From positions 1 through 64,000 of the IMG/VR virus record IMGVR_UViG_3300044730_001993: 64,000 nucleotides of DNA; one strand, given 5' to 3'. A model generated the notes under the pieces. That model saw only the letters and a list, made by a program, of their open reading frames with translations. It had not been told where the DNA came from and searched no databases. The position numbers and the translations under genes are program-made. The DNA comes from a virus. Positions 1,863-64,000 of this stretch are shown piece by piece (position 1 is the first letter of the stretch; every line of letters begins with the position of its first letter).

Positions 1863-2378
1863 ATGGCAACCAAGAAGAAGTCTACGAGGAAGCGTCCGTC
1901 GAAGTTGGCGTGCAAGCGCCGCGCGAAGGCGCTCCCGAAGAAGCGCACGGCGTCGGCAGGCAAGTCGCTCGCAGCGTGCCGTCGCCCTGCGAAGCGCGCC
2001 TCCGTCCGCAACGGCTATTACAGCCCGTCCGAAGTCGCCGAACTCAACGAGTATTTCAGCGCCGACAGCGTGCGGCGTCGCGAGGCCGCGCGCGCAGCAT
2101 CGGTCCCCGACTTGTCGGGGTGGCAAGCGTACCGCGGCGGGTCGTACGGACTGAGAGTGTCCGAGGACCGCTCCTACGAGATCGAACCCGTATCGCGCGT
2201 CGCGCGCAAGAACGATCACGCGGGCTACGTTCTTCGCGTGAACCACGGAGTCTACCAAGACTTCGTAGGCCGCAACGGGAAGTACGCGGACCCTTCGCGC
2301 GGTGCGAAGGATTACCTCTTCCGCACACCCGAGCAGGCCGTTCTCGCCGCACGCTCGCACCGCCGCGACAACCTCTGA
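1863..2378 (+). CDS. Hypothetical protein with a long K/R-rich leader ending in the tag KRASVRNG
   Basis: About 50-aa basic leader followed by an ordinary globular domain. TGTAGCGT box 7 nt before the ATG. Confidence 0.65.
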   Translation: MATKKKSTRKRPSKLACKRRAKALPKKRTASAGKSLAACRRPAKRASVRNGYYSPSEVAELNEYFSADSVRRREAARAASVPDLSGWQAYRGGSYGLRVSEDRSYEIEPVSRVARKNDHAGYVLRVNHGVYQDFVGRNGKYADPSRGAKDYLFRTPEQAVLAARSHRRDNL

Positions 2379-2447
2379 GGCGCGCATCGCGCCCTCACCC
2401 CACCAGTCGCAGTTCCCTCGCCACGGCCCGCCCGAGCACCCTCGGCC

Positions 2448-2819
2448 TCACCCTTCGTCGTACGCGCCGCGATCGAACGTCGCGGGCGGCGTCCACCCCG
2501 CCCTGAGCGCGGTTTTGATCCACTCCGGCAACCGCGGCTTCATGCCGAGCGATCGGCGGAGTTCATCGCTGCCGCCATCGCTCTCGGACTCCATCGAGTC
2601 GAGAAGTTGCGGGAGACTGCACCTCTGCATGCCCGTGCCGTGACCGCCGTTGTCCATCCACGTTTGATCGTTGGCGTCGATGGCCCAGTAGTTGTCGATA
2701 TCCCACCCCATCGAGGGGTAGCGACCCGCGCGCTTGAGCGGGAGCGCAGGCCCCGCTTCTCGCCCACCGTCGAGGTAGAAGTTGAAGTGCTCACCGTCGA
2801 ACTCGATCGTGATGCTCAT
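2448..2819 (-). CDS. Hypothetical phage protein
   Basis: Protein-like composition, packed in the minus-strand gene run. Confidence 0.6.
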   Translation of the reverse strand: MSITIEFDGEHFNFYLDGGREAGPALPLKRAGRYPSMGWDIDNYWAIDANDQTWMDNGGHGTGMQRCSLPQLLDSMESESDGGSDELRRSLGMKPRLPEWIKTALRAGWTPPATFDRGAYDEG

Positions 2820-2822
2820 AGT

Positions 2823-3161
2823 CTATGATCCCCTTGCCACGGCCCGCCCGAGCACAGTCGGTTTCGCCGTGAACGTTGTGTACGACACGTCGTGCGACCC
2901 GCCGATCCAGCGCCCGAACGCGCCGCGGTTGAGTTGATTGTCCGACTGCGTGCGCGCCGCCAGTTCGATCAACCCGAGCGCGTGGATCGCGTGCAGCGTG
3001 CGAACGTCTCGCACGTCACCGTGAGCGCCCGTGGTGACGCTCACCCCGGAGCGGAGACCCTCGCCCCACCGGGCGATTTCGCGAGCGTTCGCGGCGTCCC
3101 ACGCCTTGACGACGTGGGCGAGGGCGGCGCGCTGCGCGGGTGTGAGTTTCGGGTGTTTCAT
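2823..3161 (-). CDS. Small winged-helix-like protein (LTPAQ...GLI...GRA family)
   Basis: KLTPAQRAAL...TLHAIHALGLIE...PTVLGRAV. Class-1 promoter at 3169-3199. Confidence 0.5.
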   Translation of the reverse strand: MKHPKLTPAQRAALAHVVKAWDAANAREIARWGEGLRSGVSVTTGAHGDVRDVRTLHAIHALGLIELAARTQSDNQLNRGAFGRWIGGSHDVSYTTFTAKPTVLGRAVARGS

Positions 3162-3193
3162 GGCGAGCATCCTACGCCACCCGGCGTGGCGAT

Positions 3194-3538
3194 CTAACTC
3201 GAAAACGAGACGGCGCCCGCGGCGGTGAGTTCCGCTACCGAGACCGTTTGCCACTGGCAGTCCGGTTCACGCCCCGCGGCGACTTCGGCGTCGCAATACG
3301 CCTGCTTGCGAGCGAGAAGCGTTGCGCCAGCGCGTCGCTCGACTTGCTCACGAACGGCCTCCGCGGCGGCGAACGCATCGGCCCACGTAGCCCCTTCGCC
3401 GACGGTTACGACAACCGTCATTTTTTCGGCAAAGACGATGCGGAACACGCCTTCGGATCGCTTGTGATGGAGCATAAGGGCGAACCCCCAGCGGGCATAG
3501 TTCTGCTCGGCAACCTGCTTGCGCGTCGTCGGTCTCAT
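3194..3538 (-). CDS. Hypothetical protein
   Basis: ATG 4 nt after the class-1 element CGTTAGAT-15-CGTATGAG. Confidence 0.55.
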   Translation of the reverse strand: MRPTTRKQVAEQNYARWGFALMLHHKRSEGVFRIVFAEKMTVVVTVGEGATWADAFAAAEAVREQVERRAGATLLARKQAYCDAEVAAGREPDCQWQTVSVAELTAAGAVSFSS

Positions 3539-3897
3539 GCCTCTCATACGCCTCACGGCGCGGCGATCTAACGGGGGAGGCGCCGATTTGTGATCGCATC
3601 GGACGTTGGCGCCAGTCGCTAACGCAGTACGCGCCTCCAGTGTGTTCCGAGCGTCTGAAGGTTCGCATTTTTCATCCGCTCTACTAGGCGAATCGCCTGC
3701 TCTGGAGGAGGCATATATCCAGACTGCGTGTATCGTCGCCGAGGTCTGGAGAGCCATTGATAGTCGTGATAGAACCGTTCGCCGTCATGCGTTGTGGCGA
3801 ATATGCGCCATGCTGTGCAGAATTGGTGCGTTCTTGAACCGCTCATCACGGTGCTGTTCGCGATCTCGAACTTCATGCCGCTCTCCTGAGAAGATGG

Positions 3898-4413: not shown

Positions 4414-5339
4414 CGATTACGCGGCATCGTGTTGTGATGTCAACCGATTCTACGCCACCCGGCGCGGAGTTCTTACGAAGAAACGGCCCCCTCGGACTCG
4501 ACGCGACGGCAAAACTCTCTGCCCTCCGAAACCCACGCCTCGCCCGGAAGATCACTGAGACGGACCGTCATGACGCTAACGGGGGCGGCGCTCGCGGTCG
4601 GTGAGCGCGCGGAACACGCCGAGTCGGTTCGGGCGCTCCGGGGCGAACGCAGCGCGCGGACGTTCGGTTCTAGGTGCCACGTTCACCATCACTGCCACCG
4701 CATCACGCCGATCACGAGGCGCGGCTTGCTCGCACCGGGGATGATGCGCCGCAGTTGCTCGATCGTGGCGCGCTGCCGCTTCGAGAACCGCATCGCGGCT
4801 GCGACCCTCTCGGGAGTAGTCGTTGCGAGCCCGCCGCCGTCGCCATCGCCCGTCGCGTGCGCCGCTTCGCGCCCGATCACCCACCGCACGTCAACGTCGC
4901 TGCCGCACCACTCGACGGTGAGCCCGCGGCGCCACAACCGTCTGTCGATCCCGTTCATGACGCGACTGAGCACGGAGCGCCACCACCGGGTGTGTTCGCT
5001 GCCCTGCGTATCGTCGTCGTCGCCATCGTCGGGCGGTTCCACGTCGAGCGAGAACGCCGCCACGAGTTGTCGGATCACGGCGGGCGGGAGGTCTTCGGTG
5101 TCGACGATGATCCCGTAGGTGACCCACGCGGAGGTGTCTATGCCCACGATGCCTCCTCGCGGACGGGCGAACCGTTCGCATCGACGGGTGACGAAACGCG
5201 CGCCATCGCGATGCGGGGCGGCGGGAGCGTCGGCTCTACTGGCGCCGCGACGGGCTCGCGCCCGCACGACTCGCGGTAGCCGATGAACCAGAGGTCGCCG
5301 TTCGGCCCCTCCGCGAAGGGGAGTTCGAGTTCCATGCCC

Positions 5340-5371
5340 CTTCTACGTCGCGGGGCGACCGATTCTTTACG
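5340..5371 (-). promoter_or_regulatory. Class-1 element
   Basis: CGTAAAGAA-15-CGTAGAAG, 4 nt before ATG 5335. Confidence 0.75.
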
Positions 5372-5735
5372 TGGCGGCGAAGAATTCTGCGAGGGTGCCC
5401 GCGCTCACCAGCGCGTAGCCACGCGCCATCGCCTCGGTCGCGGAGCGTCGGTCGAGCAGAACGGCGACGCCCCGCGCCTCGATCGCAGCGCGGCGATCGT
5501 CGGCCAGTGCGAGAACGTCCGCAGGCGCGCAGCGAACGTACACGGCGAAGCGGGCGAGTTGGTCGATCGTAAGGGCGGACGTGCCGTGCTCGATGCGCGA
5601 CCACGTACTCGGCGCTAGTTCCATCGCCGCAGCGCAGTCCGCTTGCGTAGCGCCGTGACGGTCGCGGAGCCGCGCGACGGCGGCACCGACGATCGCGGCG
5701 TAGGTGGTGGCGGGGGTCACGGCGCGGTCGCTCAC
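5367..5735 (-). CDS. XRE-family helix-turn-helix regulator
   Basis: VARLRDRHGATQADCAAAMELAPSTWSRIEHG...LTIDQL. Confidence 0.85.
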   Translation of the reverse strand: MSDRAVTPATTYAAIVGAAVARLRDRHGATQADCAAAMELAPSTWSRIEHGTSALTIDQLARFAVYVRCAPADVLALADDRRAAIEARGVAVLLDRRSATEAMARGYALVSAGTLAEFFAAT

Positions 5736-6008
5736 CGCGACGCCTTGGATGCGAGGTTCTTCGCGTCCGCAATCGCCTCTCGCTTGTCGTGCCACGGGTA
5801 CAGCACGGATCGCTCGACGGTGTCGATCACGGTGTACGCTGCGGCCATGCGGAACGTGCGCCCGACTTCGCGGAGTCCGACACGCGCAGCGATGAAGCGG
5901 CCATCCTTCGACGACCACGCCACGTCGCCACGCCGAACGGTGACGCCTTCGCCCTTGAAAACAACGTCGTCGATCATGCTGGTTATACGACGCTGGTGGC
6001 GCCGTTCT

Positions 6009-6800
6009 TCAGCGGCCGAACCACTTCCCCGGCGTTCGTGGTTTCGGATTGCTCCACAACTTGAACGCTTCGATGTATTCCGGCCCGATCGTTCCGCGCG
6101 CACGGTCGCCGCCTACCTCGAAGATCGCCGACGGCGGCACGCCGTACCTCATGCGGTACTGGTGCGCACCAGCCGAGATATCGCGGTCGTCGAGGTCGGG
6201 CGATAGATCGTCCCACGGAACGATCACGCGGAGCACGATAGGGTCGCCCCCGTGCTCGCGCGCGGCCTTGAGCGCGTAGTCCCACGCACCGCCCGGTCCG
6301 CCGCTCGGTGCGCGCGTGAGGTACACCCAACCGCGCGTCGTGCTCGACCACGTACGTTTCGGTGCATCGGTCTGGAGACCGTTGCGTTTGATATCGCGGA
6401 GGAGCGCGGTCGACGTTCCGTGGTACATCCACACGAGAGCGCCCGTGAACTTCCCACGGTGCCCGCCCTTCGGCTTCGGCGGAACCTCGAACGCTTGCGA
6501 CTCCCATCGCTCGGCTTCGGCGGCGGCAAGGTCGTACCCCGAACGCTTCGACGACTCGGCCTCGCGCTCCGCGATCCACTCTTCGACCTCGGTTCGGTCG
6601 GAGGCAAGAAGGAACTCGACGAAGCGATTCCACAGGATGTAAGGCGTCGTTCGCGCGTGCGCGATGGCGCGGTCGTAGAGCGGATCGCCCCACAAGCGAG
6701 CGGGATAAGGCACCTTCTTCGCGCGGTCGATCCACTTCGGCATCCTGCCGACTGCCGTGTTTCGTATAGACCTTCGGAGTACGTTCTTCGCTCTAGCCAT
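6009..6800 (-). CDS. ADP-ribosyltransferase-fold protein (YHGT type) with N-terminal RRSIRNT tag
   Basis: WMYHGTS...IKRNGL...WVYLT...AWDYA...IVLRVIV...VPPSAI, typical of Tpt1/KptA-like ART folds. Confidence 0.7.
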   Translation of the reverse strand: MARAKNVLRRSIRNTAVGRMPKWIDRAKKVPYPARLWGDPLYDRAIAHARTTPYILWNRFVEFLLASDRTEVEEWIAEREAESSKRSGYDLAAAEAERWESQAFEVPPKPKGGHRGKFTGALVWMYHGTSTALLRDIKRNGLQTDAPKRTWSSTTRGWVYLTRAPSGGPGGAWDYALKAAREHGGDPIVLRVIVPWDDLSPDLDDRDISAGAHQYRMRYGVPPSAIFEVGGDRARGTIGPEYIEAFKLWSNPKPRTPGKWFGR

Positions 6801-6877: not shown

Positions 6878-7621
6878 ATGCGCCGCTCCCACCGCAACAG
6901 CCTCGCCGACGCCCTCCCCCTCTTCTCGAACGCCGACGACGTGGCGTACGCCGCCGACCGCTACGGCGGACTCGCCGACGAACTGCCCGACGCCGCCGAC
7001 CGGGCGCTCCGTGCGGGCGCGCGGGCGCCTCTGCGCTACCTCGGAGCGGGAGCGAACGGCATCGTGTTCTGCGACGCCCGCAAGCGAGGCTACAAGGTCG
7101 CCCGCTCGCGGGACACGTTCGCGTCGCTCGCCGACGAAGCGGAGTGGCTCTCCGTCGCCAGCGCCGACCCGACGCTGCGCAGTCACGTCGCGAAGTTCCG
7201 CGCGTGGCACCCGACGCTCGGAGTGATCGAGCGCGAGTGCGTGCAAGCGCAGGATCGCGAGAAGGTGCGAACGTGGGGTCTCGACGATAAACGGTGGAAT
7301 CTGCACCGCATGATCGGGCGCGTGATGCGCCAGTACGGGTGGTCGGCACCGGAGTACAAGGACGATTCCTACATCGTCACGCGCGATCGTGGCCTTGTGC
7401 TCGTCGATGCGGGCTACGTGCTCCGTCTCGGGAGTCGCCTCGCGCGTGAGGTTGCGGCGACACACCGCGACCCGTCGGCGTCGGCCTTCGATCGCGACTT
7501 CTCGCGCGGCACGCTGCGTTCGGAGTACGGCAGGACGATCCCGCGGATGGCTGGCGAGCGGCTGCACGATCGCCTCGCGCCACTCCCGAACGGGAACCGT
7601 GCGCGGCGTCGCTCGCGCTAG
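6878..7621 (+). CDS. Atypical protein-kinase-fold protein with RRSHRNS leader and basic tail
   Basis: Gly loop YLGAGANGIVF, YKVA lysine, helix C EAEWL, VLVDAG. The catalytic loop is degenerate (PEYKDDS). Confidence 0.65.
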   Translation: MRRSHRNSLADALPLFSNADDVAYAADRYGGLADELPDAADRALRAGARAPLRYLGAGANGIVFCDARKRGYKVARSRDTFASLADEAEWLSVASADPTLRSHVAKFRAWHPTLGVIERECVQAQDREKVRTWGLDDKRWNLHRMIGRVMRQYGWSAPEYKDDSYIVTRDRGLVLVDAGYVLRLGSRLAREVAATHRDPSASAFDRDFSRGTLRSEYGRTIPRMAGERLHDRLAPLPNGNRARRRSR

Positions 7622-7920
7622 ACCGCTTCGAGCTCGAAGACGGGCTTGCTGGTCTTCGCGGCGTTGACATAGACCGCGTAGGGCCAGTTGGAATCGTCGA
7701 TGTCCATCTGCGCCACGCGCGCAGTCTTCTTGACGAGACCCTCGTCCTTGAGCGCGCGGAGAATGTCACCCGCGGTGCCGCTCTCGGCGAGGGTCACCTT
7801 GCTCCCGGTGTACGATCGGTCGTTGACTTCGTAACCGTCCCTCGCGTTGCCCCACACGTCGAGCGTGTAGACCTTGAACGTGACGGACGCGCTGTTCTTC
7901 ACTGCGCGACGAAAACACAA
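7618..7920 (-). CDS. Hypothetical protein with RRAVKNS leader
   Basis: TLDVWGNARDGYEVND motif and protein-like composition. Confidence 0.6.
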   Translation of the reverse strand: MCFRRAVKNSASVTFKVYTLDVWGNARDGYEVNDRSYTGSKVTLAESGTAGDILRALKDEGLVKKTARVAQMDIDDSNWPYAVYVNAAKTSKPVFELEAV

Positions 7921-9475: not shown

Positions 9476-9823
9476 TCACTCGGAGGCTCCGAAATCCTGC
9501 CACGTCAGGAACGCGAGGGAGCGCGCGAACTTCGCCGACTCTCGCGCTGGATATCGAGAGAACGCCTGAGACTCGAAGTAGTCCGCAGGGCTGACCGACG
9601 GCGGCTTGCAGAACGCGGGCTTCGCCGCCCAGCGCATGATCGCTGCGTACGGGTGCGCGTCGAGTTCCTCGCGCGAGAGCACGGCGGTGTCCCTGCGCGC
9701 TTCGAGGTACTTCGTGGCCCACTCCAGCGCGCCGACGTGCGTGTACTTGAGCACCAGTTCGATCGCCTGCACGCTCCGTTCGAGCGCGGCGAACTCGTCC
9801 GGGTCTACGGTCTCGATGTTCAT
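9476..9823 (-). CDS. Hypothetical protein (leaderless, class-1 promoter)
   Basis: ATG 4 nt after CGTGAAGAA-15-CGTAGAAG. Confidence 0.65.
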   Translation of the reverse strand: MNIETVDPDEFAALERSVQAIELVLKYTHVGALEWATKYLEARRDTAVLSREELDAHPYAAIMRWAAKPAFCKPPSVSPADYFESQAFSRYPARESAKFARSLAFLTWQDFGASE

Positions 9824-9827
9824 GCGC

Positions 9828-9913
9828 CTTCTACGCCGCCAGCGCGGCGATTCTTCACGGCGCGGGAGAAAATCGGTGGCGGCGTTAGAACGGCGCTGCG
9901 AGCGGCGTATGAG
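9828..9913. promoter_or_regulatory. Divergent pair of class-1 elements
   Basis: Minus strand CGTGAAGAA-15-CGTAGAAG. Plus strand CGTTAGAA-15-CGTATGAG. Confidence 0.75.
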
Positions 9914-9918
9914 GTGGC

Positions 9919-10260
9919 ATGAACCACGAACAATGCAGGGTCGGAATGCATGTATTCTTCGGTCGCGAGAACGGCGAGAAGACGCTCGGCGAAGTGATCC
10001 GCAAGAACCCCACGAAGGCCGTAGTGCGGACGCTGGAGTCGCGCGGAGACGGTCGCGGGTCGTTCGTCGGCGCCGAGTGGCGGGTGCCCTACTCGATGCT
10101 CTCGCCCGCTACGAACGTCGCCGCCAGCGACGCGCCCATCGCGCGACCCGCCGTCGACCACGAGTCGGTGTTCGCGAGCGTTCGCGCTGCGATCGAGCGC
10201 GGCGACAAGGCCGTCGCTGCGCGACTTCTGCGCGGACTCGCGGCGACTCTCGACGGGTGA
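9919..10260 (+). CDS. Hypothetical protein, possibly SH3-like at the N-terminus
   Basis: VGMHVFFG...LGEVIRKNPTKAVV...WRVPYSML. Class-1 promoter at 9869-9913. Confidence 0.6.
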   Translation: MNHEQCRVGMHVFFGRENGEKTLGEVIRKNPTKAVVRTLESRGDGRGSFVGAEWRVPYSMLSPATNVAASDAPIARPAVDHESVFASVRAAIERGDKAVAARLLRGLAATLDG

Positions 10261-10677: not shown

Positions 10678-11205
10678 TTACTTGCGCTTCGCCTTGCGCG
10701 TGGTGCGCTTGGCCTTCGTACGCCGCTTCGGCGCGGCCCTCTTCTTCGCCGCGGGGCGCTTGACGCTCGCGCGCTTCGCGGTGGCCTTCTTCGCCGACGC
10801 GCGCTTCGGTGCCGCCTTCTTGGCGACGCGACGCTTGGCCTTCGCGGGCTTCTTCGCTGGAGCGCGCTTCGCGGCGACCTTCTTCGCGCGAGGCTTCGCC
10901 GCACCGCTGGCACCGCAGAGCGGGATCGACGAGTCGCGGTACAGCCTCTTCTGCATCTCGACGATCTTCGCCGCGCCCTCGCGAACGGCGTCGTCGAAGC
11001 CACGCTGGTAGTCCGCGACGAACTCGCGCGACACCTTGCGCAGCGGGTGCCATTCGACATCGCGCATCCGCTTGTCGCCAGCGATGATCGCGTCGGCGGC
11101 TTCGTCGGCGCAAGCGCCGATGCGAACCGTTGCCACGCTCGCCATCTTCTTGCCCCAGTCGTGCCCCGTATCGTAGGCGACGTGCGCCCCGGAAATCGTT
11201 TTCAT
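10678..11205 (-). CDS. Histone H1-like basic protein
   Basis: C-terminal half made of AKK/AAKR/PAKK repeats. Confidence 0.75.
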   Translation of the reverse strand: MKTISGAHVAYDTGHDWGKKMASVATVRIGACADEAADAIIAGDKRMRDVEWHPLRKVSREFVADYQRGFDDAVREGAAKIVEMQKRLYRDSSIPLCGASGAAKPRAKKVAAKRAPAKKPAKAKRRVAKKAAPKRASAKKATAKRASVKRPAAKKRAAPKRRTKAKRTTRKAKRK

Positions 11206-11283: not shown

Positions 11284-12024
11284 ATGCAACGTACGTGGCG
11301 TCAAGTCGGGGACCGCTGGTGGTTCTCGCTCCCGTGGTCGATCGGACTCGAACTCCGACGTGTCGGTTCGCGGACGGTCGGTTCGTTCGTACTGTTCCGT
11401 GACGGGCGCGAGGTGTCCCGCCACAACCTGCTCCCGCAAGCGCAGGGCGCCGTCGCGGAACTCGAAGCCCCGGCGACGCAGCCCGACGACCTCCGCGGGT
11501 GGCGCCCGACGCGCGAGAGCGTCCGCAACCCCGGTCGCACCCTCCCCGCGATCGTCGACCGCTGCGTGGCGCACGTCGCCCCGCGCCTCAAGGATCGCGG
11601 CCCCCGTGGCGCGCTCTCGGGCGCCGTCGCGATCTGCACCGCGCAGGCGCAGAAGCGTGGGGCACTCAAGAAGGGCTCTCGCAGCCTCACGGCGCGCGGC
11701 AAGCGCGAGGAGCGCAGCGCAACCCGTCGCAAGGGCTACAAGGCCGACACGCGGGCGGTGAAGGCCCTCGCGCGCGAGGCACGGGAGGCTCCCCCGCTCG
11801 ACCCGCGCATCGTCGCAATCGCGACCGTGCTCCGCGAACGTCAACCGGCGAACCTCGCCGACGTGGCGTTCGCGATCAAGATGAAGCGCGCCGACGCTCG
11901 CAAGTTCGTCCGCGCTGCGGCGACCCGCGCTGCGGTGGCGAAGTTCATGGGGGCGAAGAAGGTCACCTACACCGCGAGCAAGAAGAGCATCGGGCACGAC
12001 TTGCTCGCCGTGGTGTCGAAGTGA
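11284..12024 (+). CDS. Multi-module hypothetical protein with internal TRESVRNP tag
   Basis: Three apparent modules. The C-terminal one is paralogous to 12881..13183. TACAAT box 6 nt upstream. Confidence 0.65.
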   Translation: MQRTWRQVGDRWWFSLPWSIGLELRRVGSRTVGSFVLFRDGREVSRHNLLPQAQGAVAELEAPATQPDDLRGWRPTRESVRNPGRTLPAIVDRCVAHVAPRLKDRGPRGALSGAVAICTAQAQKRGALKKGSRSLTARGKREERSATRRKGYKADTRAVKALAREAREAPPLDPRIVAIATVLRERQPANLADVAFAIKMKRADARKFVRAAATRAAVAKFMGAKKVTYTASKKSIGHDLLAVVSK

Positions 12025-12881: not shown

Positions 12882-13183
12882 TGCCCCGCCCGCCGCCCGA
12901 CTTCTCACGCCTCGCGCGGGCCTACGCCGCCGCGGAGCACGCTCGCCCTCGACGTGCGCCCGACGCCCGCTACGCCGTGGCGGCGCGGGTGCTCCGCGAG
13001 AAGCACCACGCGAAACTCTACGACCTCGCAGTGGCGATGCTCACGCCGCTCGACGACGCGCGAACGTTTCTGCGCCGCCCCGAAGTGCGCGACGAACTGG
13101 CGAGGATGCTCGGCGCCGTGAGGGTGGCGTACACCACCGCGCGCCTCCTGCGCAACGACGTGATCGAGGCGGTTTTCTTGTGA
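12881..13183 (+). CDS. Hypothetical protein (paralog of the C-terminal module of 11284..12024)
   Basis: VLREKHHAKLYDLA...DARTFL...MLGAVRVAYT versus VLRERQPANLADVA...DARKFV...FMGAKKVTYT. Confidence 0.6.
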   Translation: MPRPPPDFSRLARAYAAAEHARPRRAPDARYAVAARVLREKHHAKLYDLAVAMLTPLDDARTFLRRPEVRDELARMLGAVRVAYTTARLLRNDVIEAVFL

Positions 13184-21206: not shown

Positions 21207-21211
21207 GGCGA

Positions 21212-51857: not shown

Positions 51858-52179
51858 ACCGGCGACGCTACACGATCGCCCGAAGTTCCGCTACGGCGAA
51901 CGTCGCCCGTTTATTCACTCCGCCGTTTCCCGCTAGACGCGCGACGCGGCGCGGCGTAGGATCGCGGGACCATGCGTAAACTCGTTCTTCTCGCCGCACT
52001 CCTCAACGCTTGCGACGACGCCGTTGTCGCGCCCCGCGACGCCACGCTCGACTCGCCCGAGTCCGATGCGGTCACCGTGTTCGACGCCTCGCAGGAGCCG
52101 CTGAACGCTCCCGCCGACGTGCTCGACGCGGGCATCGACGCGCGCTGAACATCCACGCCGCCGCTCACGTACAACTCCC

Positions 52180-54083: not shown

Positions 54084-55133
54084 TCACCGAACGCCGCAGT
54101 CCATCGCAGCGCGAACGTACGCGGCGTGACTGTATCGGTTCTCGGCGTCGGCGAAACTCTTGGCCGCTCGGTAGACGCGCGTGACGCAGTTCGGGTTCAG
54201 AATCACCGTCTCCGACGCCATCGGCTGAAACACGTCGTAGCCCGATGCCTTCGCGTAGGCGTACGCCTCGCGCACGAACTCCAAGTGCGAGAACGAAGGA
54301 TCGCCGGGAGTAATGCTCGCGATCCACGCAGCACGCATCGAACGACCGTTCGCCGCCGCGAGTGCGTGCATACGGTCGACCATCCGATCGAACCACGCAG
54401 GCTTCGACGACGGCGCAAAACCGAACCTATCGGTGACGTTTGCCGACCACTCCAGAATCGACGCGTCAAGGCGCACTTCTACCGCGAGCACGTTCTTGCC
54501 GTACGAGGAATACGGTGTGGTCGTGGTGTAGAAGCCCTCGCCGAAGAAACCCTTGTCGGTGCGACTGCCATACATCGCAGGGTCGGGCTTCTGCTCCGCG
54601 AGCAAACGCTTCACGTTCGCCGCGGTCGAACCGTGGAAGTATCGCCGCGTGCGAAGGTCGAACTCGCGCACGGTGAGGCGCCACGGAGGCACGTCGCCCA
54701 CCCCGTACCACGGGGCAACTCGATCCATGCAGTCGGCGCTCACGGTGGAACGCCCGTTCTTCTGCGCCCGTCGCCCCGCGCGCTTGCTCTCGAACGTCGC
54801 GATCACGTCACGGAGCCACGGCGCCACCGGGTCTTGCCACCCGCTCTTGCGGTAGGGGATCGACGGCGTGCCACCCCACAAGAGCCAAGAAACCGCCGCA
54901 GGCGACTTCGGGTCGCGCATACGCTTCGCCGACTCGGCCTTCGCGACGCCGTGGCGCGCGAACCACCCGCGCATCTTCTTCGCCTTCGCGTAGTCGATCG
55001 GTTCGCCGTCGGCGAGACGTTCGGCCCACCGCACCGTCTCACCGCGCAGCCCCTTGCCCGCGTAGCCCTCGCGGACCAGCGCGAGCCCCTTGCGGAGCGC
55101 GGAGCGTACGGCGGCGGGCGCGGTGGTGCTCAT
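54084..55133 (-). CDS. Phage WLLWGG-type domain plus PARP-like (ART-PolyVal-like) ADP-ribosyltransferase, joined by RRAQKNG
   Basis: KMRGWFARH...VSWLLWGG, then YFHGST...FFGEGFYTT...SYG...GYD...SETVILNP (H-Y-E). Confidence 0.75.
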   Translation of the reverse strand: MSTTAPAAVRSALRKGLALVREGYAGKGLRGETVRWAERLADGEPIDYAKAKKMRGWFARHGVAKAESAKRMRDPKSPAAVSWLLWGGTPSIPYRKSGWQDPVAPWLRDVIATFESKRAGRRAQKNGRSTVSADCMDRVAPWYGVGDVPPWRLTVREFDLRTRRYFHGSTAANVKRLLAEQKPDPAMYGSRTDKGFFGEGFYTTTTPYSSYGKNVLAVEVRLDASILEWSANVTDRFGFAPSSKPAWFDRMVDRMHALAAANGRSMRAAWIASITPGDPSFSHLEFVREAYAYAKASGYDVFQPMASETVILNPNCVTRVYRAAKSFADAENRYSHAAYVRAAMDCGVR

Positions 55134-55746: not shown

Positions 55747-56322
55747 CTACCAGTTCTTGACGATCCTCACGAGTCGCGCGTCGTTGTGCGGCTTGAGCAC
55801 AACTTCGTGCTCGTGTCCGAAGCCGCGAGAGGCCAGCGGCGTATCGTCCTGCGCGTGGTGCGCGAGAACGTCGCTCGCCGCCACGTCGTACACGGCGACG
55901 AACTTCGCAGCGCCGGTCACGTCGTCGGTGGTGACGGAGAGGCCCGACGTTTCGTCCGCGGACTCGCCCTTGAGTCGCCGGTACATCCGCGCATGGTCGC
56001 CGCCGTGATGCGAGACGAACGCCCGCTCGACCCCGGCGTCCCACGCGCTTCGCTGCGCTTGCGGCAACGACTCGTAGTCGCTCAGAAGCGCGTTCTTCGC
56101 GTCGCGTGTGCCATAGAACACCCACTCGTTTAGGGACGGGTACAGGGTGTCTAGCGCAGAAGCGTAGGCCCGCTCGCGGAACCCGTTTCGCTGCGAGCGC
56201 CTCACGCTACCGGGCCGTGCGATCGCCGAGCACCCGCACACGACGCCGCGCCCGCGGTCGTCCGTGATCGAGCACGCACGCCCGCAACCGGCGCAGCGAA
56301 CGCGACGCTTGCGCGCGGTCAT
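55747..56322 (-). CDS. Putative R-S-E type ADP-ribosyltransferase with RRSQRNG tag
   Basis: RMYR...GLSVTTD...GHEHEVVL (R, SxT, ExE). Confidence 0.6.
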   Translation of the reverse strand: MTARKRRVRCAGCGRACSITDDRGRGVVCGCSAIARPGSVRRSQRNGFRERAYASALDTLYPSLNEWVFYGTRDAKNALLSDYESLPQAQRSAWDAGVERAFVSHHGGDHARMYRRLKGESADETSGLSVTTDDVTGAAKFVAVYDVAASDVLAHHAQDDTPLASRGFGHEHEVVLKPHNDARLVRIVKNW

Positions 56323-56915
56323 CGGCGATGTTTGCCCATCCGACGCGAGCCGTTACGCTCTGCACGGCGACGCTCCGCCTCATCGATGTCCGGGGTTTCG
56401 TTGAACGTAAGAAAACGACCCTCGCCGACGCGCTTGTGCATCCGCGCGAGACGTTCGTCGCCCTGCCAGCCGGGGATCGCCTCGATGCGCCCCGCCATCT
56501 TGGCGCGGTAGTTATCGCGATCGAGGTGACTCTCCATCGCCTCTACCACCGATGTTTTCAGCGCCTTTGATGCCTCGCGAGACCGCGCGCGAAGCCATGC
56601 AAGCCGAGCCGAAATAGGCGGCACCGCGCCACTGTTCCGCAGACCCGTGAACCACACGTTGTAGTCGACCTTGTCTCGCATCGTCATCGCATCCATCGCG
56701 TCGGCGAGACGGTCGTCCACGAACTCGCTTGCAGCGAACAACGACGTAACGTCGGGCACCCTCAGTTTCTCGTAGTGAAACTCGGTGATCTTGGCCGACG
56801 ATTCGCCGTGAATGGCACGGAACTCGTAGCTGTAGTGCCGTTCGCCGCGAATCTTCTTTGTCTCGAAGCGAACGATCTCTTTGGCCGTCGCGCTGGTCTT
56901 CCACTCGTCTGCCAT
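56319..56915 (-). CDS. Hypothetical protein with C-terminal RRAERNG tag
   Basis: Shares the RIEAIPGW..DERLARMH module with the adjacent gene. Confidence 0.65.
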   Translation of the reverse strand: MADEWKTSATAKEIVRFETKKIRGERHYSYEFRAIHGESSAKITEFHYEKLRVPDVTSLFAASEFVDDRLADAMDAMTMRDKVDYNVWFTGLRNSGAVPPISARLAWLRARSREASKALKTSVVEAMESHLDRDNYRAKMAGRIEAIPGWQGDERLARMHKRVGEGRFLTFNETPDIDEAERRRAERNGSRRMGKHRR

Positions 56916-56958: not shown

Positions 56959-57954
56959 CTACCGCCGACTCCGCGGCGCCTTGCGGGGCTTCGCCGCCGA
57001 ACGTCGCGCGGCACGCCGACCGTTCGTCGCAGCGCGGCGGCGCAGCGGCCCGAGCGCGGCTTCGACCTCCGCGTCCGTCGGGTAGTAGAACGGGACGCCG
57101 AAATCCTTCATCATCGCGCGCACCATGCGGAGTTGCGCCTCCGACGTGGCAACGCCGTCCGCGATCTGCGTTGCGAGCGTGCGGGCGAACTCAGCCGCGT
57201 CCGCGTTGCCCACGCGCTTCGCGATGGCGTACGCCTCGCGCAGTGCCACCGGGCGCCCATCCCGCGGGTCGTAGGCGTCGGGGGCGACCGCACGCACGGG
57301 ACCGGGCGCGGAGGGCGCTGCGGGGGCCGTGGGGCGCTGCGGCGGGGGTACGGACGGGGGCCGAGCGGCGGGGGCCGACGCACCGATGCCAGCGCGACGT
57401 TCCATCTGCTCGATATGCTGGTGCTCGCCTTCGGTGAGAACCTTCCTCTCGTCGGCGCGATTGTGCATCCGCGCGAGACGTTCGTCGCTCCGCCAGCCGG
57501 GGATCGCCTCGATGCGAGCCATCGTATCGAGGCGGTATCGGCCACGATCGGGGACGCTTGCGTTGCGCTCGTAGAAGTCGGGCATCTTCGCGTACTCGGC
57601 GCGCATCGAATTGACGCCCTCGCGCCAGTTCTCACGCCAGTTCTTCGTGCGGTTGAAGCCCTTCTGCCCCTGCGCCCTCTTGTTCACCGTCTCCCCCGAC
57701 ACGGTGCTGATAAGCGAGAGTTGCATCGACCCTTCGCCCTTGCCGACGCCCTTGTCGCCGCTGCCGATCGTGGACGACACCTTGATCGCGACCTTGGGGC
57801 CGAGAGGGAGTCGGTAGATGCCCACATGGTTCGGGTCGCGCACCCACGGGGTGCCGAGCGTTTCGAGCCACGCTTCGAGGTCGGCGCGGGAGATTTCGAC
57901 GTAGGTCGACGCGTTCGGGAACGAGCGGCGGGCAGTTCTCTTCGGGGTTCTCAC
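56959..57954 (-). CDS. Multi-module hypothetical protein with tags at both ends
   Basis: RRSFPNA leader, Pro-rich linker, RRAATNGRR tail. Confidence 0.7.
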   Translation of the reverse strand: MRTPKRTARRSFPNASTYVEISRADLEAWLETLGTPWVRDPNHVGIYRLPLGPKVAIKVSSTIGSGDKGVGKGEGSMQLSLISTVSGETVNKRAQGQKGFNRTKNWRENWREGVNSMRAEYAKMPDFYERNASVPDRGRYRLDTMARIEAIPGWRSDERLARMHNRADERKVLTEGEHQHIEQMERRAGIGASAPAARPPSVPPPQRPTAPAAPSAPGPVRAVAPDAYDPRDGRPVALREAYAIAKRVGNADAAEFARTLATQIADGVATSEAQLRMVRAMMKDFGVPFYYPTDAEVEAALGPLRRRAATNGRRAARRSAAKPRKAPRSRR

Positions 57955-60302
57955 TTCGATTGCTCCGTGCGCAGTTCGCGCGCGTTTCCGACGATCTCAC
58001 GAAGCCCCGAAACGTAGTAGAGCTCACCGGGCTTCGCGGGGATTCCTCGCGCGGGGTCGCCTCGCAGGTTGAGCGGTCGCGTGACCGAGACGTACCAGAG
58101 GTTGAGTTCCTCTTGAACGTCCTTCGGGTTCTTCGGGCGGCGCTTCTGCCACCCGTCGATGCCGTACTTGAACGTTTCATTGAGGATGAACACGCGGTTC
58201 GCCTCGCCGCCCTTGATGCGGTGAACCGACGTGAGCACGAGTCGCCCCGCAAGGTGCGCCTTGTACTCCTGCGGCGACATCGCCTTCACGTCGCCCTCGG
58301 TCGGCGCGATTTCCTTCAGGCGACGTTCTACTTCGGACGGGGTGTCGATGCCGGGGAGTTGCGTGAGGCCCGTGCGGTCGGGGTTCCAGAACGCGTTGTA
58401 GATGAGGTCGACCATCACGACTTCGTGATCTTCGTCGATCATCTGCGAAATGTTGCGGAACTCCTTCCCGCTTCGACGTTGCAGTTCCGTAAGGCGCTCC
58501 CTTACCTCCGCGGATCGCGTGGCGCGCTCACGTTCGTGCCAGTTCTGGAGCGCCTCGATGAACACGCCCATATCGTCCGAGTCGCGCGTGCGCGCTCGGA
58601 TCTTGTACATGATCTCCTTGAGTTCCTTCGCGATCGAACTGCCCTCTCCGAGAATCCACGGGGTGATGCCCTGCGAAATCGCGATGAGCGCCATCGGCAC
58701 GAGCGCCATGTTCACGCGAGTGATTACGATATCGCCGCGGCCCCACATCTGAACCATTTGGCGCGAGTCGATGCGAGCGCACGTTCCTTCGGGGGTGCCT
58801 TCGGGCACCTCGAACTGCGGCACCAGTTTTCGCGCTTCGGCTGCGGAACACGCGGGCACGCGATACGATACGGAGAGCGGCAGAACCGTCGCATTCAACT
58901 GCTTGATGAGGCGCTTGATGGCGTCCGAGTCTGCTCCGCGGAATCGATACACCGCCTGCTTGGAGTCGCCCACGACGACAACGCGTCCACCGGGCGCGAG
59001 ACTGCGGAACACGAGCGCGAGTTGCGCCTTGTCCATGTCCTGCGTTTCATCGACGAAGATCACGTCGTACCGACGTTCGGGTTCCATGTCAGGCGTCGCC
59101 GCGACCACGAACGTCATGTCGCGGAACGAAATGAACGGAAGTCTACCGTTCTCGGTGATCTCGTCGTACGCCGCGAGGTCTTGCGGCCTCGCGATGCTGC
59201 GAGCGTATTTGGCATTGGCGGGCGGCTCTGTGAGTCGCGCGCGCTGCGCAGCATGAACCCACCGCAGCACGTTCGCGTGCGTGAACCGCTGCGGCTTCGC
59301 CTGCGTGCCGCCGATGTACTCCCACTCTCGCGGGTCGCCCGACTCGGGGAGAAGAAGGTCGTGGTCGACTTGCACGGCGCGGATTTCGTCGTCACTGAGG
59401 GCGACGTAGCACTCGCAGAGCGAGCACAACTTCTCGATGCCTTCGAGAACGTCACGGAGCTTGTCGCCGCCGATTTGTTCGGGCACCGCAGCCCTCATCA
59501 CCGCCTTGTCGCGAAGGTAGTCGAGGATGCCGGAGCTCTTGTGCTTCTTGCCCGCGGCGTAGCGAGCGTGCCAGTATCGCCGCAGGATCGAGTAACCGTG
59601 CGCCGAGAGCGTCGCGACCGTAACGTTCGTGAGGTTCGCGGGAATGCGAGCGTCGAGTTCCTTCTGAATGCTCGTGTTGAAGGCCACCACGAGAACGGAG
59701 AGGGAAGGGTCGATGTGCTTGAGAGCTTCGATCAAAACCGTAGTTTTTCCCGCCCCTGCGACTGCCTCGATCACGAGGTGTCCGACGCCGTTGCGGATCT
59801 CATCGAAGATCGCCGTCTGGTAGTGCGACCACTTGCGTTCGGCTGTTGCGACGGCCTTGCTGCGCGAGTCTTCGGGGCGCGCTTCGAGCACCGCGCCTAC
59901 GGGCGTTGAAGCCTCCTTGACGATCGCATCCTTCGGAGCGTCGGGCACGATTGCCAGTTCCCGACTCGACGGTGCTTCGTTCACGGGAATCGCGGGCTCG
60001 ACCACCGTCACTTGTCGCGCGACGGGAACCGTGGGGATCGCGGCGCGCTCGGCTGCGTCCTTCGCCTTGTCCGCTTGCGAGAACACTCCGATGCTGGAAC
60101 CGTTCAGGAGCGCCACGAAGCCCGCGGGACGAACGAGCGGCTCGCCAGCGATCATCGTAACTGCGACCACGTTGTCGCCGATCGTCGTGCTCCACGACGT
60201 CGGGAACCCGAAGTTGCGCGTCCACACCGTCGGGGTGCTCCCGTTGCGGTGCGACTTGCGCGAGCGGACGATGCGGGGCGAACGGCGGGCGGAGCGACGC
60301 AT
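57951..60302 (-). CDS. UvrD/Rep-family (SF1A) DNA helicase with RKSHRNG leader
   Basis: AVAGAGKTT, VDETQD, VGDSKQAVYRFRGAD, LSVSYR, SVHRIKGGE and YVSVTR motifs. Confidence 0.92.
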   Translation of the reverse strand: MRRSARRSPRIVRSRKSHRNGSTPTVWTRNFGFPTSWSTTIGDNVVAVTMIAGEPLVRPAGFVALLNGSSIGVFSQADKAKDAAERAAIPTVPVARQVTVVEPAIPVNEAPSSRELAIVPDAPKDAIVKEASTPVGAVLEARPEDSRSKAVATAERKWSHYQTAIFDEIRNGVGHLVIEAVAGAGKTTVLIEALKHIDPSLSVLVVAFNTSIQKELDARIPANLTNVTVATLSAHGYSILRRYWHARYAAGKKHKSSGILDYLRDKAVMRAAVPEQIGGDKLRDVLEGIEKLCSLCECYVALSDDEIRAVQVDHDLLLPESGDPREWEYIGGTQAKPQRFTHANVLRWVHAAQRARLTEPPANAKYARSIARPQDLAAYDEITENGRLPFISFRDMTFVVAATPDMEPERRYDVIFVDETQDMDKAQLALVFRSLAPGGRVVVVGDSKQAVYRFRGADSDAIKRLIKQLNATVLPLSVSYRVPACSAAEARKLVPQFEVPEGTPEGTCARIDSRQMVQMWGRGDIVITRVNMALVPMALIAISQGITPWILGEGSSIAKELKEIMYKIRARTRDSDDMGVFIEALQNWHERERATRSAEVRERLTELQRRSGKEFRNISQMIDEDHEVVMVDLIYNAFWNPDRTGLTQLPGIDTPSEVERRLKEIAPTEGDVKAMSPQEYKAHLAGRLVLTSVHRIKGGEANRVFILNETFKYGIDGWQKRRPKNPKDVQEELNLWYVSVTRPLNLRGDPARGIPAKPGELYYVSGLREIVGNARELRTEQSK

Positions 60303-61842: not shown

Positions 61843-61890
61843 CTTGTACGAGCGGAGCGAGCGAGTTCTTTACGTCGCCTCGCCGATTTC
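61843..61890 (-). promoter_or_regulatory. Class-1 element
   Basis: AAATCGG-8-CGTAAAGAA-15-CGTACAAG, 4 nt before ATG 61838. Confidence 0.75.
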
Positions 61891-61898
61891 GTCGGCGG

Positions 61899-62459
61899 TC
61901 ATCGCTTGCCGCCCGCGGTGGCGGGCAGCGTGTTCGTGAGCGAGTGCGTGCGCCCGACGTTCTGCGCGGCGCGGAGCGCACTGAGGAGGTGCGGCGCCAC
62001 CACGCCGCTCTTGCGGCCCTCGACGGGCGGGAGCGGCATCGCTGCGAAACGGTAGCCGTTCTCCACCGTCTCGAACAGTTCCGCGAGTTTCGCGCGGTGG
62101 TGCTCGTAGAGTTCCACCGCGGAGAGAACCGCCGACTCCGAGCCGCGGAACTTCGTGGTCTTGCCGTCGGTGCGAAACTTCTCGTTCGCTCGCCCACGGT
62201 AGAGGGTCCGCCCGATGCTGAATGCCGCGCAGCCCGCGAACACCGCGCAGTGAACCGAGAGGCGCTCCTCGTACTCGTGCGCGTACGTTACGCACTGCTC
62301 GATCTGCGGTTCGCTCTCGGGGATCGACACTTCGGCGCCGTACTTCGCGATGTAGCGATCCATCACGCGGCGCGCGTTCTCGCGCTCCTCGGCGGTGGCG
62401 GTTTCGCACGACGCGATGGCGTGCAGGCGGCGGAACGTTTCGCGCGGGTTCTCACTCAT
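61899..62459 (-). CDS. DUF2786-like protein
   Basis: RRLHAIA...ATAEERENARRVMDRYIAKYG. Confidence 0.55.
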   Translation of the reverse strand: MSENPRETFRRLHAIASCETATAEERENARRVMDRYIAKYGAEVSIPESEPQIEQCVTYAHEYEERLSVHCAVFAGCAAFSIGRTLYRGRANEKFRTDGKTTKFRGSESAVLSAVELYEHHRAKLAELFETVENGYRFAAMPLPPVEGRKSGVVAPHLLSALRAAQNVGRTHSLTNTLPATAGGKR

Positions 62460-62742
62460 CTTGCTCTCCCAACGCCGCGAGCCCGCACCGCGCGAGTTGC
62501 GCAGGTACGGGCGTCGTGGCGGCGGCGTGCCTCACTTCGTGATGCGGACGACCTTCCACCCCTGCACGCTGGCGTTCATGCGGAGGAGGCCGTGCGCCGC
62601 CTTGCCCGCCGTCATGCGGACCTTGCCACTCTCGTCGATGGCGGCGATCCACCCGGCCTTCGGGGCGCGGCCGAAGCAACCGCGCATATCTTCGAGTGCC
62701 TTCGCGAGCGAAACCGTGTCGGTCGTGTTCTTCATGGTGTCT

Positions 62743-62790
62743 CTTCTACGCCCGTCGGGGCGCCGTTCTTTACGACGCCCGATCATTTTT
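62743..62790 (-). promoter_or_regulatory. Class-1 element
   Basis: CGTAAAGAA-15-CGTAGAAG, 7 nt before ATG 62735. Confidence 0.75.
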
Positions 62791-63079
62791 CCGCGCAGTG
62801 CTCGCAGTCGCACGGCTCGGCGCTCACCACGTCGCGCAGGAGCGCCGCTACGGACTCGCGGTGTACGCAGTGCGTCCCCTCGTACGCCCACCCCGGACGC
62901 AACTCCGCCCACAAGCTAGGCACTTCATCGACCGTCTCGTCCCACGCCGAGAGAACGCGCGGGTGCGCGAGGATTTTCTGCCACGACTTCGTTTTCGTAG
63001 GATTGCGCATGCGCAGTTATACGCACCGCAACGACCCGCTTCTTACACGCCCCCGAAGTTTTCTTCGAGCGGGCAGAGC

Positions 63080-64000
63080 CTACCGCGTGCGGCGCCGCAC
63101 GGACCGGCGACCGTTCTGCTCGCTCCTGCGGTCGTCGGGCAACTGGCCCACCGAGAACAGGTTGCGGTCGGGTTCGCCCTCGCGCGGGAGCGGGCGCTTG
63201 CGCCAGTACATCACGAGGCGACGGAACGCATCGAGTTCCCGCTGCGCAGACGCGATCGTGGCTTCGATGCGCTCGCGGTCGAACTTCTTCGTCGCGTTCT
63301 CGGCGGCGCGCTGCATCGACTCGATCAACTCGCCGAGCGCGGCGACGTTCTTCACCGTGCCCGCGGGCGACAACTCGAAGGGCGGGAACGCAACGCCGTC
63401 GCAACGTCCCTCGATGCCGCCCTGATAGCGGGGGCGCTCGTAGCCGTGCAGCACCATCACGGGGAGGTCGCCGCGCCCAGCTTCGAGCTTGATGTTGCGG
63501 AAACACACGGGGCACGTTCCGGTGTTGTCGCGAGTCCGCGCCTCCGCGGGAACGTGCTCCTCGACGTTCAGGAAACGATTCACGCGCGCAACCCAGTCGG
63601 TCTCTTCGTCGAGCCACGAGGTCAACTCGTACGTCGAGACACCGGGCGCGCGACGCTTGCGACCGCTGGTTACGTCTACGACGTAGGTGCCGTGGCCCCG
63701 CATCGGCAGAAGCTCCACGGACTTGCCGTCGAGCGATGCGCGGATCGCGTCGACCGCGACGACGCCCTCGTAGGTGACGTACCAGTAGCCATGCGCGACG
63801 TCTTCGGCGCTTCGGCGAACGTCGGAGAGGAACACGGCGCCCGACTTGAACTTCGCGGGGATCTTGTCGACCACGCGAGTGCGGAGCGCGCTGGCGAGCG
63901 TCGCGAAACTCTCTTCGTCGTCGGCGTATGCGTGCGCTGGCCTGTTGTCTCCGACGCGAGCGAGCGCGACGAACTCCTCCGCGTGCCCACCGATCGCTTC
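63080..64000 (-). CDS. Partial hypothetical protein with a Zn finger and C-terminal RRSEQNGRRS tag
   Basis: The frame is open to the window edge. GTCPVC...HGY...RCDG. Confidence 0.65.
   Translation of the reverse strand, partial: EAIGGHAEEFVALARVGDNRPAHAYADDEESFATLASALRTRVVDKIPAKFKSGAVFLSDVRRSAEDVAHGYWYVTYEGVVAVDAIRASLDGKSVELLPMRGHGTYVVDVTSGRKRRAPGVSTYELTSWLDEETDWVARVNRFLNVEEHVPAEARTRDNTGTCPVCFRNIKLEAGRGDLPVMVLHGYERPRYQGGIEGRCDGVAFPPFELSPAGTVKNVAALGELIESMQRAAENATKKFDRERIEATIASAQRELDAFRRLVMYWRKRPLPREGEPDRNLFSVGQLPDDRRSEQNGRRSVRRRTR

Follow-up and report, generated by a model that had tools for sequence, protein, structure and literature searches.

This study focused on a short amino-acid motif, RR(S/A)x(R/K)N(G/P/S), that recurs in the predicted proteins of an uncultivated phage represented by a single record of 87,860 bases (IMG/VR IMGVR_UViG_3300044730_001993). 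The window analysed comprises bases 1–64000 of this record and has a G+C content of 66–69%. IMG/VR classes the record as linear, and its CheckV completeness of 77% makes it a fragment. The motif, hereafter the tag, was shown to be conserved and portable; it is a short linear element of this phage lineage and marks the point where a disordered polybasic arm meets a folded effector module. One common partner may read the label, most likely the machinery of head assembly and maturation, which would sort the tagged proteins into the particle and cut them at or near the Asn; we give this reading a probability of about 40%. New here are the retention of Arg and Asn in orthologues, the exchange of modules at the tag, and three tagged modules with relatives of the polyvalent type.

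A motif at the joint of arm and module

Codon-bias gene calling predicted 153 genes over 92% of the record, 114 of which start inside the window. For four genes (6009–6800, 7618–7920, 12021–12881 and 49813–50667), the longer starts given in an initial annotation of the window fit better than those first called. That the shared motif is real was confirmed by several counts. The strict pattern RR[SA].[RK]N[GPS] occurs 10 times in the 153 called proteins, compared with a mean of 0.03 and a maximum of 1 in 2000 within-protein shuffles (none reached 10), and adopting three longer starts raises the strict count to 12 for the record, 9 of them inside the window. The broader pattern RR[SA]..N was found 17 times against 1.33 expected (0 of 2000 shuffles), and the five shadow frames of the same genes, though far richer in Arg, hold 0, 2, 0, 0 and 0 strict matches. 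When gapped words of three and four residues were scanned without bias, RRS..N (11 versus 0.33) came out on top once the 45-residue repeats of the two fibre-like proteins were set aside. A matrix iterated from the strict sites detects 21 sites (0.18 in 200 shuffles), with Asn at the conserved position in 19 of them and Glu in none, and defines a core of a basic residue, Asn, and then Gly, Pro or Ser. A looser pattern gives 32 sites in 27 of the 153 proteins, or 20 of the 114 in the window. The tags at 28816–28836 and 36595–36615, and some short degenerate forms, are weak items.

Asn, described in the initial annotation as uncommon in such GC-rich coding DNA, makes up 2.65% of the residues of the called proteins, and Arg accounts for 9.8%. 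Every instance listed in that annotation that was looked for was recovered in its gene by a loose scan of the longest open reading frames (ORFs) plus two direct translations, and the proposed excess over shuffled and shadow-frame backgrounds was borne out. An origin by chance, or from the composition of coding sequence rich in Arg and in G+C, would draw some support from the Arg content and from the pattern having been defined after the data had been inspected, but it is refuted by the shuffles, the shadow frames, the unbiased word scan and the independent related contigs described below, and can be regarded as negligible.

By position, the 32 sites comprise 16 with the Asn in the first 30 residues, 7 with the Asn in the last 32 and 9 internal ones; the termini represent 35% of the residues and hold 23 of the 32 sites (binomial p = 2.8e-5). 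The motif does, therefore, occupy the leader ends, domain boundaries and tail starts at which it had first been noticed. N-terminal tags have a basic leader before the motif and ordinary sequence after the Asn, while C-terminal tags have ordinary sequence, then the motif with Asn-Gly, and then a basic tail of 4–20 residues. Since the arm precedes the motif in the former and follows Asn-Gly in the latter, arm and module are in every case separated by the Asn-X bond. With a net charge of +3 to +10 over 7–25 residues (a longer stretch in 1863–2378), the arms are strongly basic, and there is one motif copy per module boundary, on the module side of the arm, with none repeated along the arms. The long arms of 1863–2378 and 10678–11205 hold one motif copy and none, respectively. 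The residue after the Asn in the 16 N-terminal tags is Pro (6), Ser (4), Ala (2), Gly (2), Thr (1) or Asp (1), and it is Gly in all 7 C-terminal and in 7 of the 9 internal tags.

The tagged proteins are 100–397 residues long (783 in the helicase) and have one to three modules. In an AlphaFold2 model of the 36694–37458 product (mean pLDDT 89.8), residues 1–14 have a pLDDT < 50 and the first strand begins at residue 17, just past Asn15; in a model of the 63080–64129 product (349 residues, mean pLDDT 84.6), confidence is low for the first 8 residues and for the tail. A separate observation concerns the C-terminal tail of 10678–11205, which consists of about 75 residues of Ala/Lys/Pro/Arg repeats without Asn and resembles the tails of histone H1 and actinobacterial HU.

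The codons of the tag vary, with Arg encoded by CGC, CGA, CGT, CGG, AGA and AGG, and Ser by TCN and AGC codons, which argues that the motif is selected or kept at the amino-acid level. These mixed codon families, together with a codon identity among same-residue tag pairs that is close to genome expectation at four of the seven positions (82 versus 83.8, 79 versus 81.7, 77 versus 63.9, and 45 versus 59.4), indicate that the tags are not recent DNA copies; the first Arg alone has a clear excess of CGC (260 versus 180). An all-against-all BLAST of the 153 proteins found 10 similar pairs at E < 1e-3, so that few bearers are paralogous, and the motif recurs, much as initially described, in proteins that are mostly unrelated. 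The enrichment, the varied codons and the scant paralogy uphold the view that it acts at the protein level and is portable between unrelated proteins.

Other origins of the motif were also considered. Paralogy as a general cause was ruled out by the small number of similar pairs. A DNA-level origin, with a promoter or repeat read in frame, was rejected because the GAAC-N14-CGTA elements, which resemble extracytoplasmic function (ECF) sigma promoters, are intergenic and lie outside the tags, and because the tag codons vary. In a twin-arginine translocation (Tat) signal, Arg-Arg leads into a hydrophobic N-terminal stretch; here, polar or charged residues come after the motif, which is also found at C-termini, and this candidate was discarded.

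Conservation and module exchange in relatives

Relatives were scored with simple patterns, the position matrix being over-fitted to flanking residues and missing obvious tags. In a set of 12 homologues of 36694–37458 (36–88% identity), conservation reaches at least 90% at Arg10 and Asn15, and the remaining leader is variable; one homologue has an N-terminal tag plus a second tag between an extra module and the conserved domain. Across 140 homologues of this family, which is considered below to have an ADP-ribosyltransferase (ART) fold, the form [RK][RK]x(0-1)N[GP] was counted 27 times, with 7.6 expected from shuffles. In eleven of these 27 rows it is no more than a few residues away from where the domain begins, and in others it is located elsewhere in the same multi-module proteins. 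No member of the family was found in genome_contigs, viral_contigs or cultured phages. Relatives of the tagged UvrD-like helicase (57951–60302) either retain the whole leader on a diverged body or have a different leader with the motif, and one 47% relative is without a clear motif. In two of them, P0103 and P0104, a 35-residue leader almost identical to that of the phage helicase is joined to a body that is only 41% identical. Single-sequence patterns retrieved no close helicase relatives from viral_contigs or metagenome_contigs. Both tags of 63080–64129 are kept in its 92% relative, and more than 80 distant homologues bear another terminal peptide instead.

Related metagenome contigs are enriched in the motif as well. 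There are 8 sites on L030 compared with 0.62 expected (0 of 300 shuffles reached 8) and 4 on L033 compared with 0.52 (1 of 300), and L031 carries a shorter R-R-N-P form, with 9 sites compared with 1.08 (0 of 300); contigs L028 and L029 are too short for a verdict (65 and 11 of 300 shuffles, respectively). Comparison of predicted proteins with those of three related contigs showed modules split, fused or swapped exactly at the tag. Gene 49813–50667 corresponds to two genes of L030, one ending right after a C-terminal tag and the next starting with an N-terminal tag. A chimeric protein of L033 joins the first module of 54084–55133, up to the tag, to the second module of 55747–56322, from the tag on, and a protein of L030 consists of the Cys-rich head of 55747–56322, then the first module of 54084–55133 ending in the tag, and then something else. 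The L030 orthologue of 48761–49816 has an extra module of 158 residues ahead of the tag that is N-terminal in the window gene, making the tag internal there. The suggestion that internal tags mark true module boundaries is thus corroborated by relatives in which the modules are separate genes, or are recombined, and are joined at the tag. An IS1595-family transposase (L030 438–1514) adjoins the block of tagged genes on that contig.

The terminal peptide of the distant homologues of 63080–64129 is of the approximate form R-V-A-x-R-(F/Y)-L and is found at the N- or C-terminus (proteins P0002–P0088, on jumbo-phage contigs L004–L027 of 45–485 kb). It also occurs on unrelated neighbours, including a 1809-residue protein containing a topoisomerase IB and a DUF5661 protein, and 23 of 34 pattern hits are terminal. 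From the sequences, it looks like a second, lineage-specific terminal label. On the 435-kb phage contig L007, five minus-strand naive ORFs (12102–12656, 12560–13126, 14600–15007, 18269–18829 and 19011–19433) end in approximately R-F-(D/E)-R-(E/D)-x-(I/V)-L before the stop codon, for which paralogy or a wrong frame are possible explanations.

The modules themselves have links to phage polyvalent proteins, which are predicted to be packaged, injected and processed into units (Iyer et al. 2017, the available part of PMC5512222). The modelled 36694–37458 product appears to have an ART-like fold interrupted by a long coiled-coil hairpin, and VIA-align matched it to TreX (Z 9.0, rmsd 3.1, 104 aligned), TreTu (Z 8.1, rmsd 2.6, 96 aligned) and scabin (Z 8.1, rmsd 3.6, 117 aligned), with many coiled-coil matches tied, so that these matches are moderate evidence, based on a predicted structure, for an ART fold. 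An ART of the R-S-E type would have a conserved Arg, Ser and Glu; in this family, Arg29 and Ser179 are nearly invariant and Glu204 is invariant. Pfam had no match for this protein, Foldseek returned nothing at E <= 0.001 for either of the two models, and a profile search of the PDB with the ART family gave nothing useful. The protein cluster of 36694–37458 is recorded on a contig of up to 180,664 bases. The family has 133 representatives, including proteins of 1227–4957 residues, and three large members that were scanned carry a methylase plus SNF2, LPD38 or 2H domains.

Four homologues of the 63080–64129 protein are fused to InPase. The N-terminal 'W' module of 54084–55133 matches part of gp017 of a cultured Nodularia phage, between a TUDOR-like domain and InPase; gp017 is annotated as a minor head protein and is encoded three genes downstream of the portal gene. 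No similar junction motif is present in gp017. The second module of 54084–55133 gave a weak atlas lead (0.78) to ART-PolyVal, and tagged proteins of L031 include an ART-PolyVal protein (36 bits, cut-off 31.2), a GHKL-type ATPase and a NUDIX/PARP-like protein. Three tagged modules are, then, related to parts of polyvalent-type proteins or to fusions with them, and these are predicted virion cargo according to the part of PMC5512222 available, a kinship that agrees with the cargo role first proposed for the tagged proteins.

Tagged genes and their genomic setting

Two classes of promoter-like elements were seen. Class 1, GAAC-N14-CGTA, is found a short distance from the start codon in many of the small genes (e.g., 9823–9919, 21206–21338 and 62735–62783), and fits the ECF sigma factor encoded by the phage at 32244–34379. 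Class 2 is a TANNNT hexamer, often with a TTGCG-like element upstream (e.g., 1820–1862, 48704–48750 and 51857–51900); it is located 5–9 bases before the start codon, so that the messages of this class would be leaderless. A matrix-defined tag is present in 11 of 20 class-2 genes compared with 7 of 133 others (Fisher p = 1.9e-7), and just one of 23 class-1 genes is tagged, in line with the early impression that the motif avoids the small genes with ECF-like promoters. Class 2 also heads the operon of the fibre-like repeat proteins, a fibre-like protein of 499 residues, and the lysis-like gene 37944–38555.

On the plus strand, the tag at 1995–2015 ends a polybasic N-terminal leader of about 50 residues in gene 1863–2378, and gene 6878–7621 has an N-terminal tag at residues 2–8 (6881–6901). 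Gene 11284–12024 carries an internal tag at residue 77 (11512–11532), gene 12021–12881 an N-terminal tag (12051–12071) and a second, internal one (12627–12647), and gene 13180–14100 an N-terminal tag (13186–13206) and a second at 13669–13689, before a weak match to DUF5872, with a basic C-terminal tail after it. The remaining tagged genes described here are on the minus strand. N-terminal tags are found in 6009–6800 with its longer start (6756–6776), the body of which is 42% identical to the PARP-like part of the NUDIX/PARP-like protein of L031; in 7618–7920, likewise with the longer start (7891–7911); in 16897–17247 (17203–17223); in a degenerate form in 24583–24891 (24853–24873, coordinates derived by hand); in 36694–37458, the ART-fold candidate, where the Asn is residue 15 (37411–37431); and in 47589–48704 (48663–48683), which opens the operon encoding the fibre-like repeat proteins.

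Further to the right, gene 48761–49816 has a C-terminal tag (48788–48808) and an N-terminal one at about 49778–49798, and gene 49813–50667 has an internal tag at the joint of its two modules (50221–50241) and an N-terminal one at about 50626–50646, both of these N-terminal positions being derived by hand. The 50664–51857 protein has three tags, N-terminal (51816–51836), internal (51015–51035) and C-terminal (50697–50717), and its residues 76–274 are paralogous to the untagged gene 23976–24581. Internal tags separate the W module from the second module in 54084–55133 (54753–54773), and a Cys-rich N-terminal piece from module X in 55747–56322 (56182–56202). Gene 56319–56915 ends in a C-terminal tag (56349–56369) and a basic tail of 10 residues. 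Gene 56959–57954 has an N-terminal tag (57910–57930) and a C-terminal tag (57019–57039) followed by a basic tail of 20 residues, and the UvrD-like helicase gene 57951–60302 has an N-terminal tag (60240–60260). In gene 63080–64129, which extends beyond the window, a C-terminal tag (63110–63130) is followed by a basic tail of 10 residues, and the N-terminal tag is degenerate.

Family scans covered 30 record proteins with PHROGs and 40 entries of record proteins with Pfam. In these libraries, no tagged protein other than the UvrD-like helicase had a family match, and apart from the genes named below almost all proteins scanned were likewise unmatched. Curated Pfam cut-offs were passed solely by the helicase, which is of the replication type, 783 residues long and also matched by PHROGs, and by the sigma factor, a 711-residue protein with ECF-type sigma domains (32244–34379), again with a PHROG match. 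The other PHROG matches were a tyrosine integrase (743–1807), two IscB-type HNH proteins that are 84% identical to each other and lie beyond the window (record 73704–75086 and 86261–87628), two proteins of repeats of about 45 residues assigned to 'virion structural protein' (40533–42488 and 42703–45897), and weak tape-measure and endolysin matches for a 203-residue protein with a C-terminal hydrophobic anchor (37944–38555). Pfam had no match for the last of these, the His and Asp motifs of which we take to be those of a LAS-type metallopeptidase with a membrane anchor. The two repeat proteins have a nearly identical N-terminus and 69% identity over 360 residues, and their fibre-like relatives on L030 differ in length (299 and 763 residues). 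Contig L033 likewise encodes two IscB-type HNH proteins (4757–6142 and 14303–15673), 66–70% identical to the pair of the record. Within a run of small cassettes in the window, two genes of 103 residues (21621–21932 and 22619–22930) are 96% identical and have near-identical upstream regions. A megablast of window positions 40–60 kb against phages gave no match.

Function and comparison with known systems

The reading preferred here, that head-assembly or maturation machinery recognizes the tag, is favoured because the motif has a fixed polarity and is kept at internal joints, because fusion and fission occur there, and because three modules have polyvalent kin; T4 and the giant phages offer precedents, and the fibre-like and lysis-like genes headed by class 2 point the same way. 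Arm and motif would sort the tagged proteins into the particle via the head-assembly machinery, and maturation would cut the arm off its module, and joined modules apart, at the Asn-X bond or close to it. The lineage would then deliver the usual polyvalent repertoire as freely shuffled single modules. In a more specific version, which is rather unlikely to hold as a whole, a high-GC uncultivated clade has swapped the giant polyvalent proteins for a single-module kit sharing a 'pack here, cut here' label, in which the basic arm would dock each module in the head under assembly and release would follow at Asn-X. The releasing scission could be carried out by an Asn-specific maturation protease or be an Asn-driven self-cleavage, and fused and split versions (as in this phage, L030 and L033) would yield the same mature products, so that modules could recombine freely at the label. 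A keyword search of the open-access literature found no description of either type of cleavage in tailed phages, nor of such a motif, its two-ended use, or the exchange of modules at it.

A number of observations weigh against recognition by the head machinery. Pro is unusual beside a bond cut by a protease, and it follows the Asn in 6 of the 16 N-terminal tags. No more than about 12 residues separate the Asn from the conserved core in the ART family, and in that family it may belong to the domain. A replication-type UvrD helicase carries the tag, and its relatives P0104 and P0105, of about 1230 residues, contain the intein-splicing domain PF14890. The class-2 promoters resemble host sigma-70 promoters, and one lies upstream of the ECF sigma operon; host-type promoters are usually early, and the tagged class could be early rather than late. 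The prohead protease that the initial annotation had anticipated elsewhere in the genome did not come to light: no prohead protease (S78 or S77), HK97-type capsid, Terminase_6N or MuF was recognizable on the record, itself a fragment, and the S77 part of this result carries little weight, as the S77 control matched nowhere. The same fragment gave no match to MPTase-PolyVal (PF18818). In T4, targeting to the prohead core precedes DNA entry. What stands of the initial annotation is a portable protein-level tag at leaders, tails and boundaries, whereas its further step, in which the arm binds DNA as the route of co-packaging, appears doubtful by analogy with T4, where propeptides target proteins into the prohead core (the available part of PMC10052503). 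Nor do C-terminal and internal tags have a precedent in the giant phage SPN3US, in which N-terminal propeptides are removed at 13 of the 14 sites of cleavage that were mapped and the sole C-terminal site is the protease's own, as given in the same part of PMC10052503.

The most serious competitor, itself unlikely, is that arm and motif form a nucleic-acid hook, a portable DNA- or RNA-binding element similar to AT-hooks that adds affinity to enzymes acting on or close to DNA, with no packaging or cutting and with the nucleic acid as the shared reader. AT-hooks, too, occur in unrelated proteins, terminally or as links between domains, and the strongly basic arms, the histone-like tail of 10678–11205, and the presence among the bearers of a helicase and of an ART-fold protein with structural matches to the DNA-modifying toxins scabin and pierisin all suit such a role. 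Symmetrical binding, however, would need neither the fixed orientation nor the secondary-structure breakers after the Asn; the motif is single at each module boundary, always on the module side of the arm and not repeated along it, and a lineage-specific motif with one conserved Asn fits a protein reader more easily. An improbable alternative is a control site. The tag might be a common degron, a 'timer' based on deamidation, or a target for modification, for example by kinase-like or ADP-ribosylating enzymes of the phage itself, and one temporal class of proteins would be switched on or off together through it. The confinement of the motif to one promoter class would agree with this, as would the ART-fold proteins among the bearers and the kinase-like features read by eye from protein sequences of the phage, and Asn-Gly, the dipeptide most prone to deamidation, is present in 14 of the 16 C-terminal and internal tags. 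Yet the Ser is dispensable, being often Ala, and Pro, Tyr, Phe or Ile in orthologues, and a degron leaves the internal copies at module joints and the module exchange unexplained. A phosphorylation site is unlikely, the Ser position being replaceable.

Also quite improbable is a recombination scar or neutral linker that is carried along with shuffled promoter-plus-leader cassettes and modules and is simply tolerated. Homology breakpoints exactly at the tags, and the near-identical leaders of P0103 and P0104 ahead of a diverged body, speak for it; the near-genomic codon identity of the tags with their mixed Arg (CGN/AGR) and Ser (TCN/AGC) codons, the fixation of Arg and Asn in orthologues with otherwise diverged leaders, and the fact that the same motif arose at N- and C-termini speak against it. 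If the tag is a sorting and processing signal, any protein could be loaded into a phage particle by a compact and transferable means. The continued deliverability of fast-changing anti-host enzymes (ADP-ribosyltransferases, a helicase and others) would also be explained, since swaps at a fixed junction spare the delivery signal, and the polyvalent-protein idea would be tied to a concrete junction motif. Were it a nucleic-acid hook instead, the tag would still represent a novel, short and portable motif for bacterial viruses.

Among known systems, the closest in kind is the capsid targeting sequence of T4 internal proteins, reportedly described by Mullaney and Black in 1996, which is said to be N-terminal only, not polybasic, to end in Glu, and to be removed by the prohead protease. 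Both are short peptides common to fast-changing, otherwise unrelated proteins (here 27 of 153, with few paralogues), and the tag is likewise proposed to sort proteins into the head and to be cut off. In contrast to the T4 signal, it ends in Asn, and its placement is not strictly N-terminal, with 7 C-terminal sites and 9 between modules or otherwise internal besides the 16 N-terminal ones; its packaging and cutting roles are only inferred. T4 Alt, an ADP-ribosyltransferase, is packaged and injected, as stated in the available part of PMC5512222. In the giant phages phiKZ and SPN3US, many head and ejection proteins share one cleavage motif, and several sites per protein are possible (the available part of PMC10052503). 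The likeness to the tag lies in one motif on many proteins, sometimes at several sites in one of them; the giant-phage motif, given in the initial annotation as S/A/G-X-E, has a Glu where the tag has Asn and never Glu.

AT-hooks are very short basic motifs with a turn-forming residue, built on an Arg-Gly-Arg-Pro core and often repeated in one protein, whereas the tag has a core of basic-Asn-(Gly/Pro/Ser), occurs once per module boundary and has a fixed polarity. The adenovirus protease recognizes a single consensus, located close to one end or the other (N or C) in several basic, DNA-bound precursors of virion proteins, and the asparagine peptide lyases of several virus capsids undergo self-scission after Asn, including at Asn-Pro and Asn-Ser bonds, which requires a folded active site. 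These belong to eukaryotic viruses and involve other motifs, and the Asn of the phage tag is predicted by the models to sit at the edge of disorder. We know of no shared Asn motif in the signal peptides of contractile injection systems. In such systems (PVC, Afp), unrelated payloads enter a particle resembling a phage tail by means of N-terminal peptides, which also work when moved to foreign proteins (e.g., the available part of PMC11495950). These signals, as far as that source goes, are N-terminal only and are read by the AAA ATPase Pvc15; no such ATPase or contractile genes were seen on the phage record.

Polyvalent proteins have 2–15 domains (the available part of PMC5512222), compared with one to three modules in the tagged proteins, and they have an embedded zincin-like MPTase that is without a PF18818 counterpart on the record, a fragment. 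A defined junction motif was not found among the statements on polyvalent proteins available from PMC5512222. The two repertoires nevertheless overlap, in the ART domain, the association with InPase, the methylase-helicase and LPD38 partners, the HATPase, and the NUDIX/PARP-like protein of the tagged relatives.

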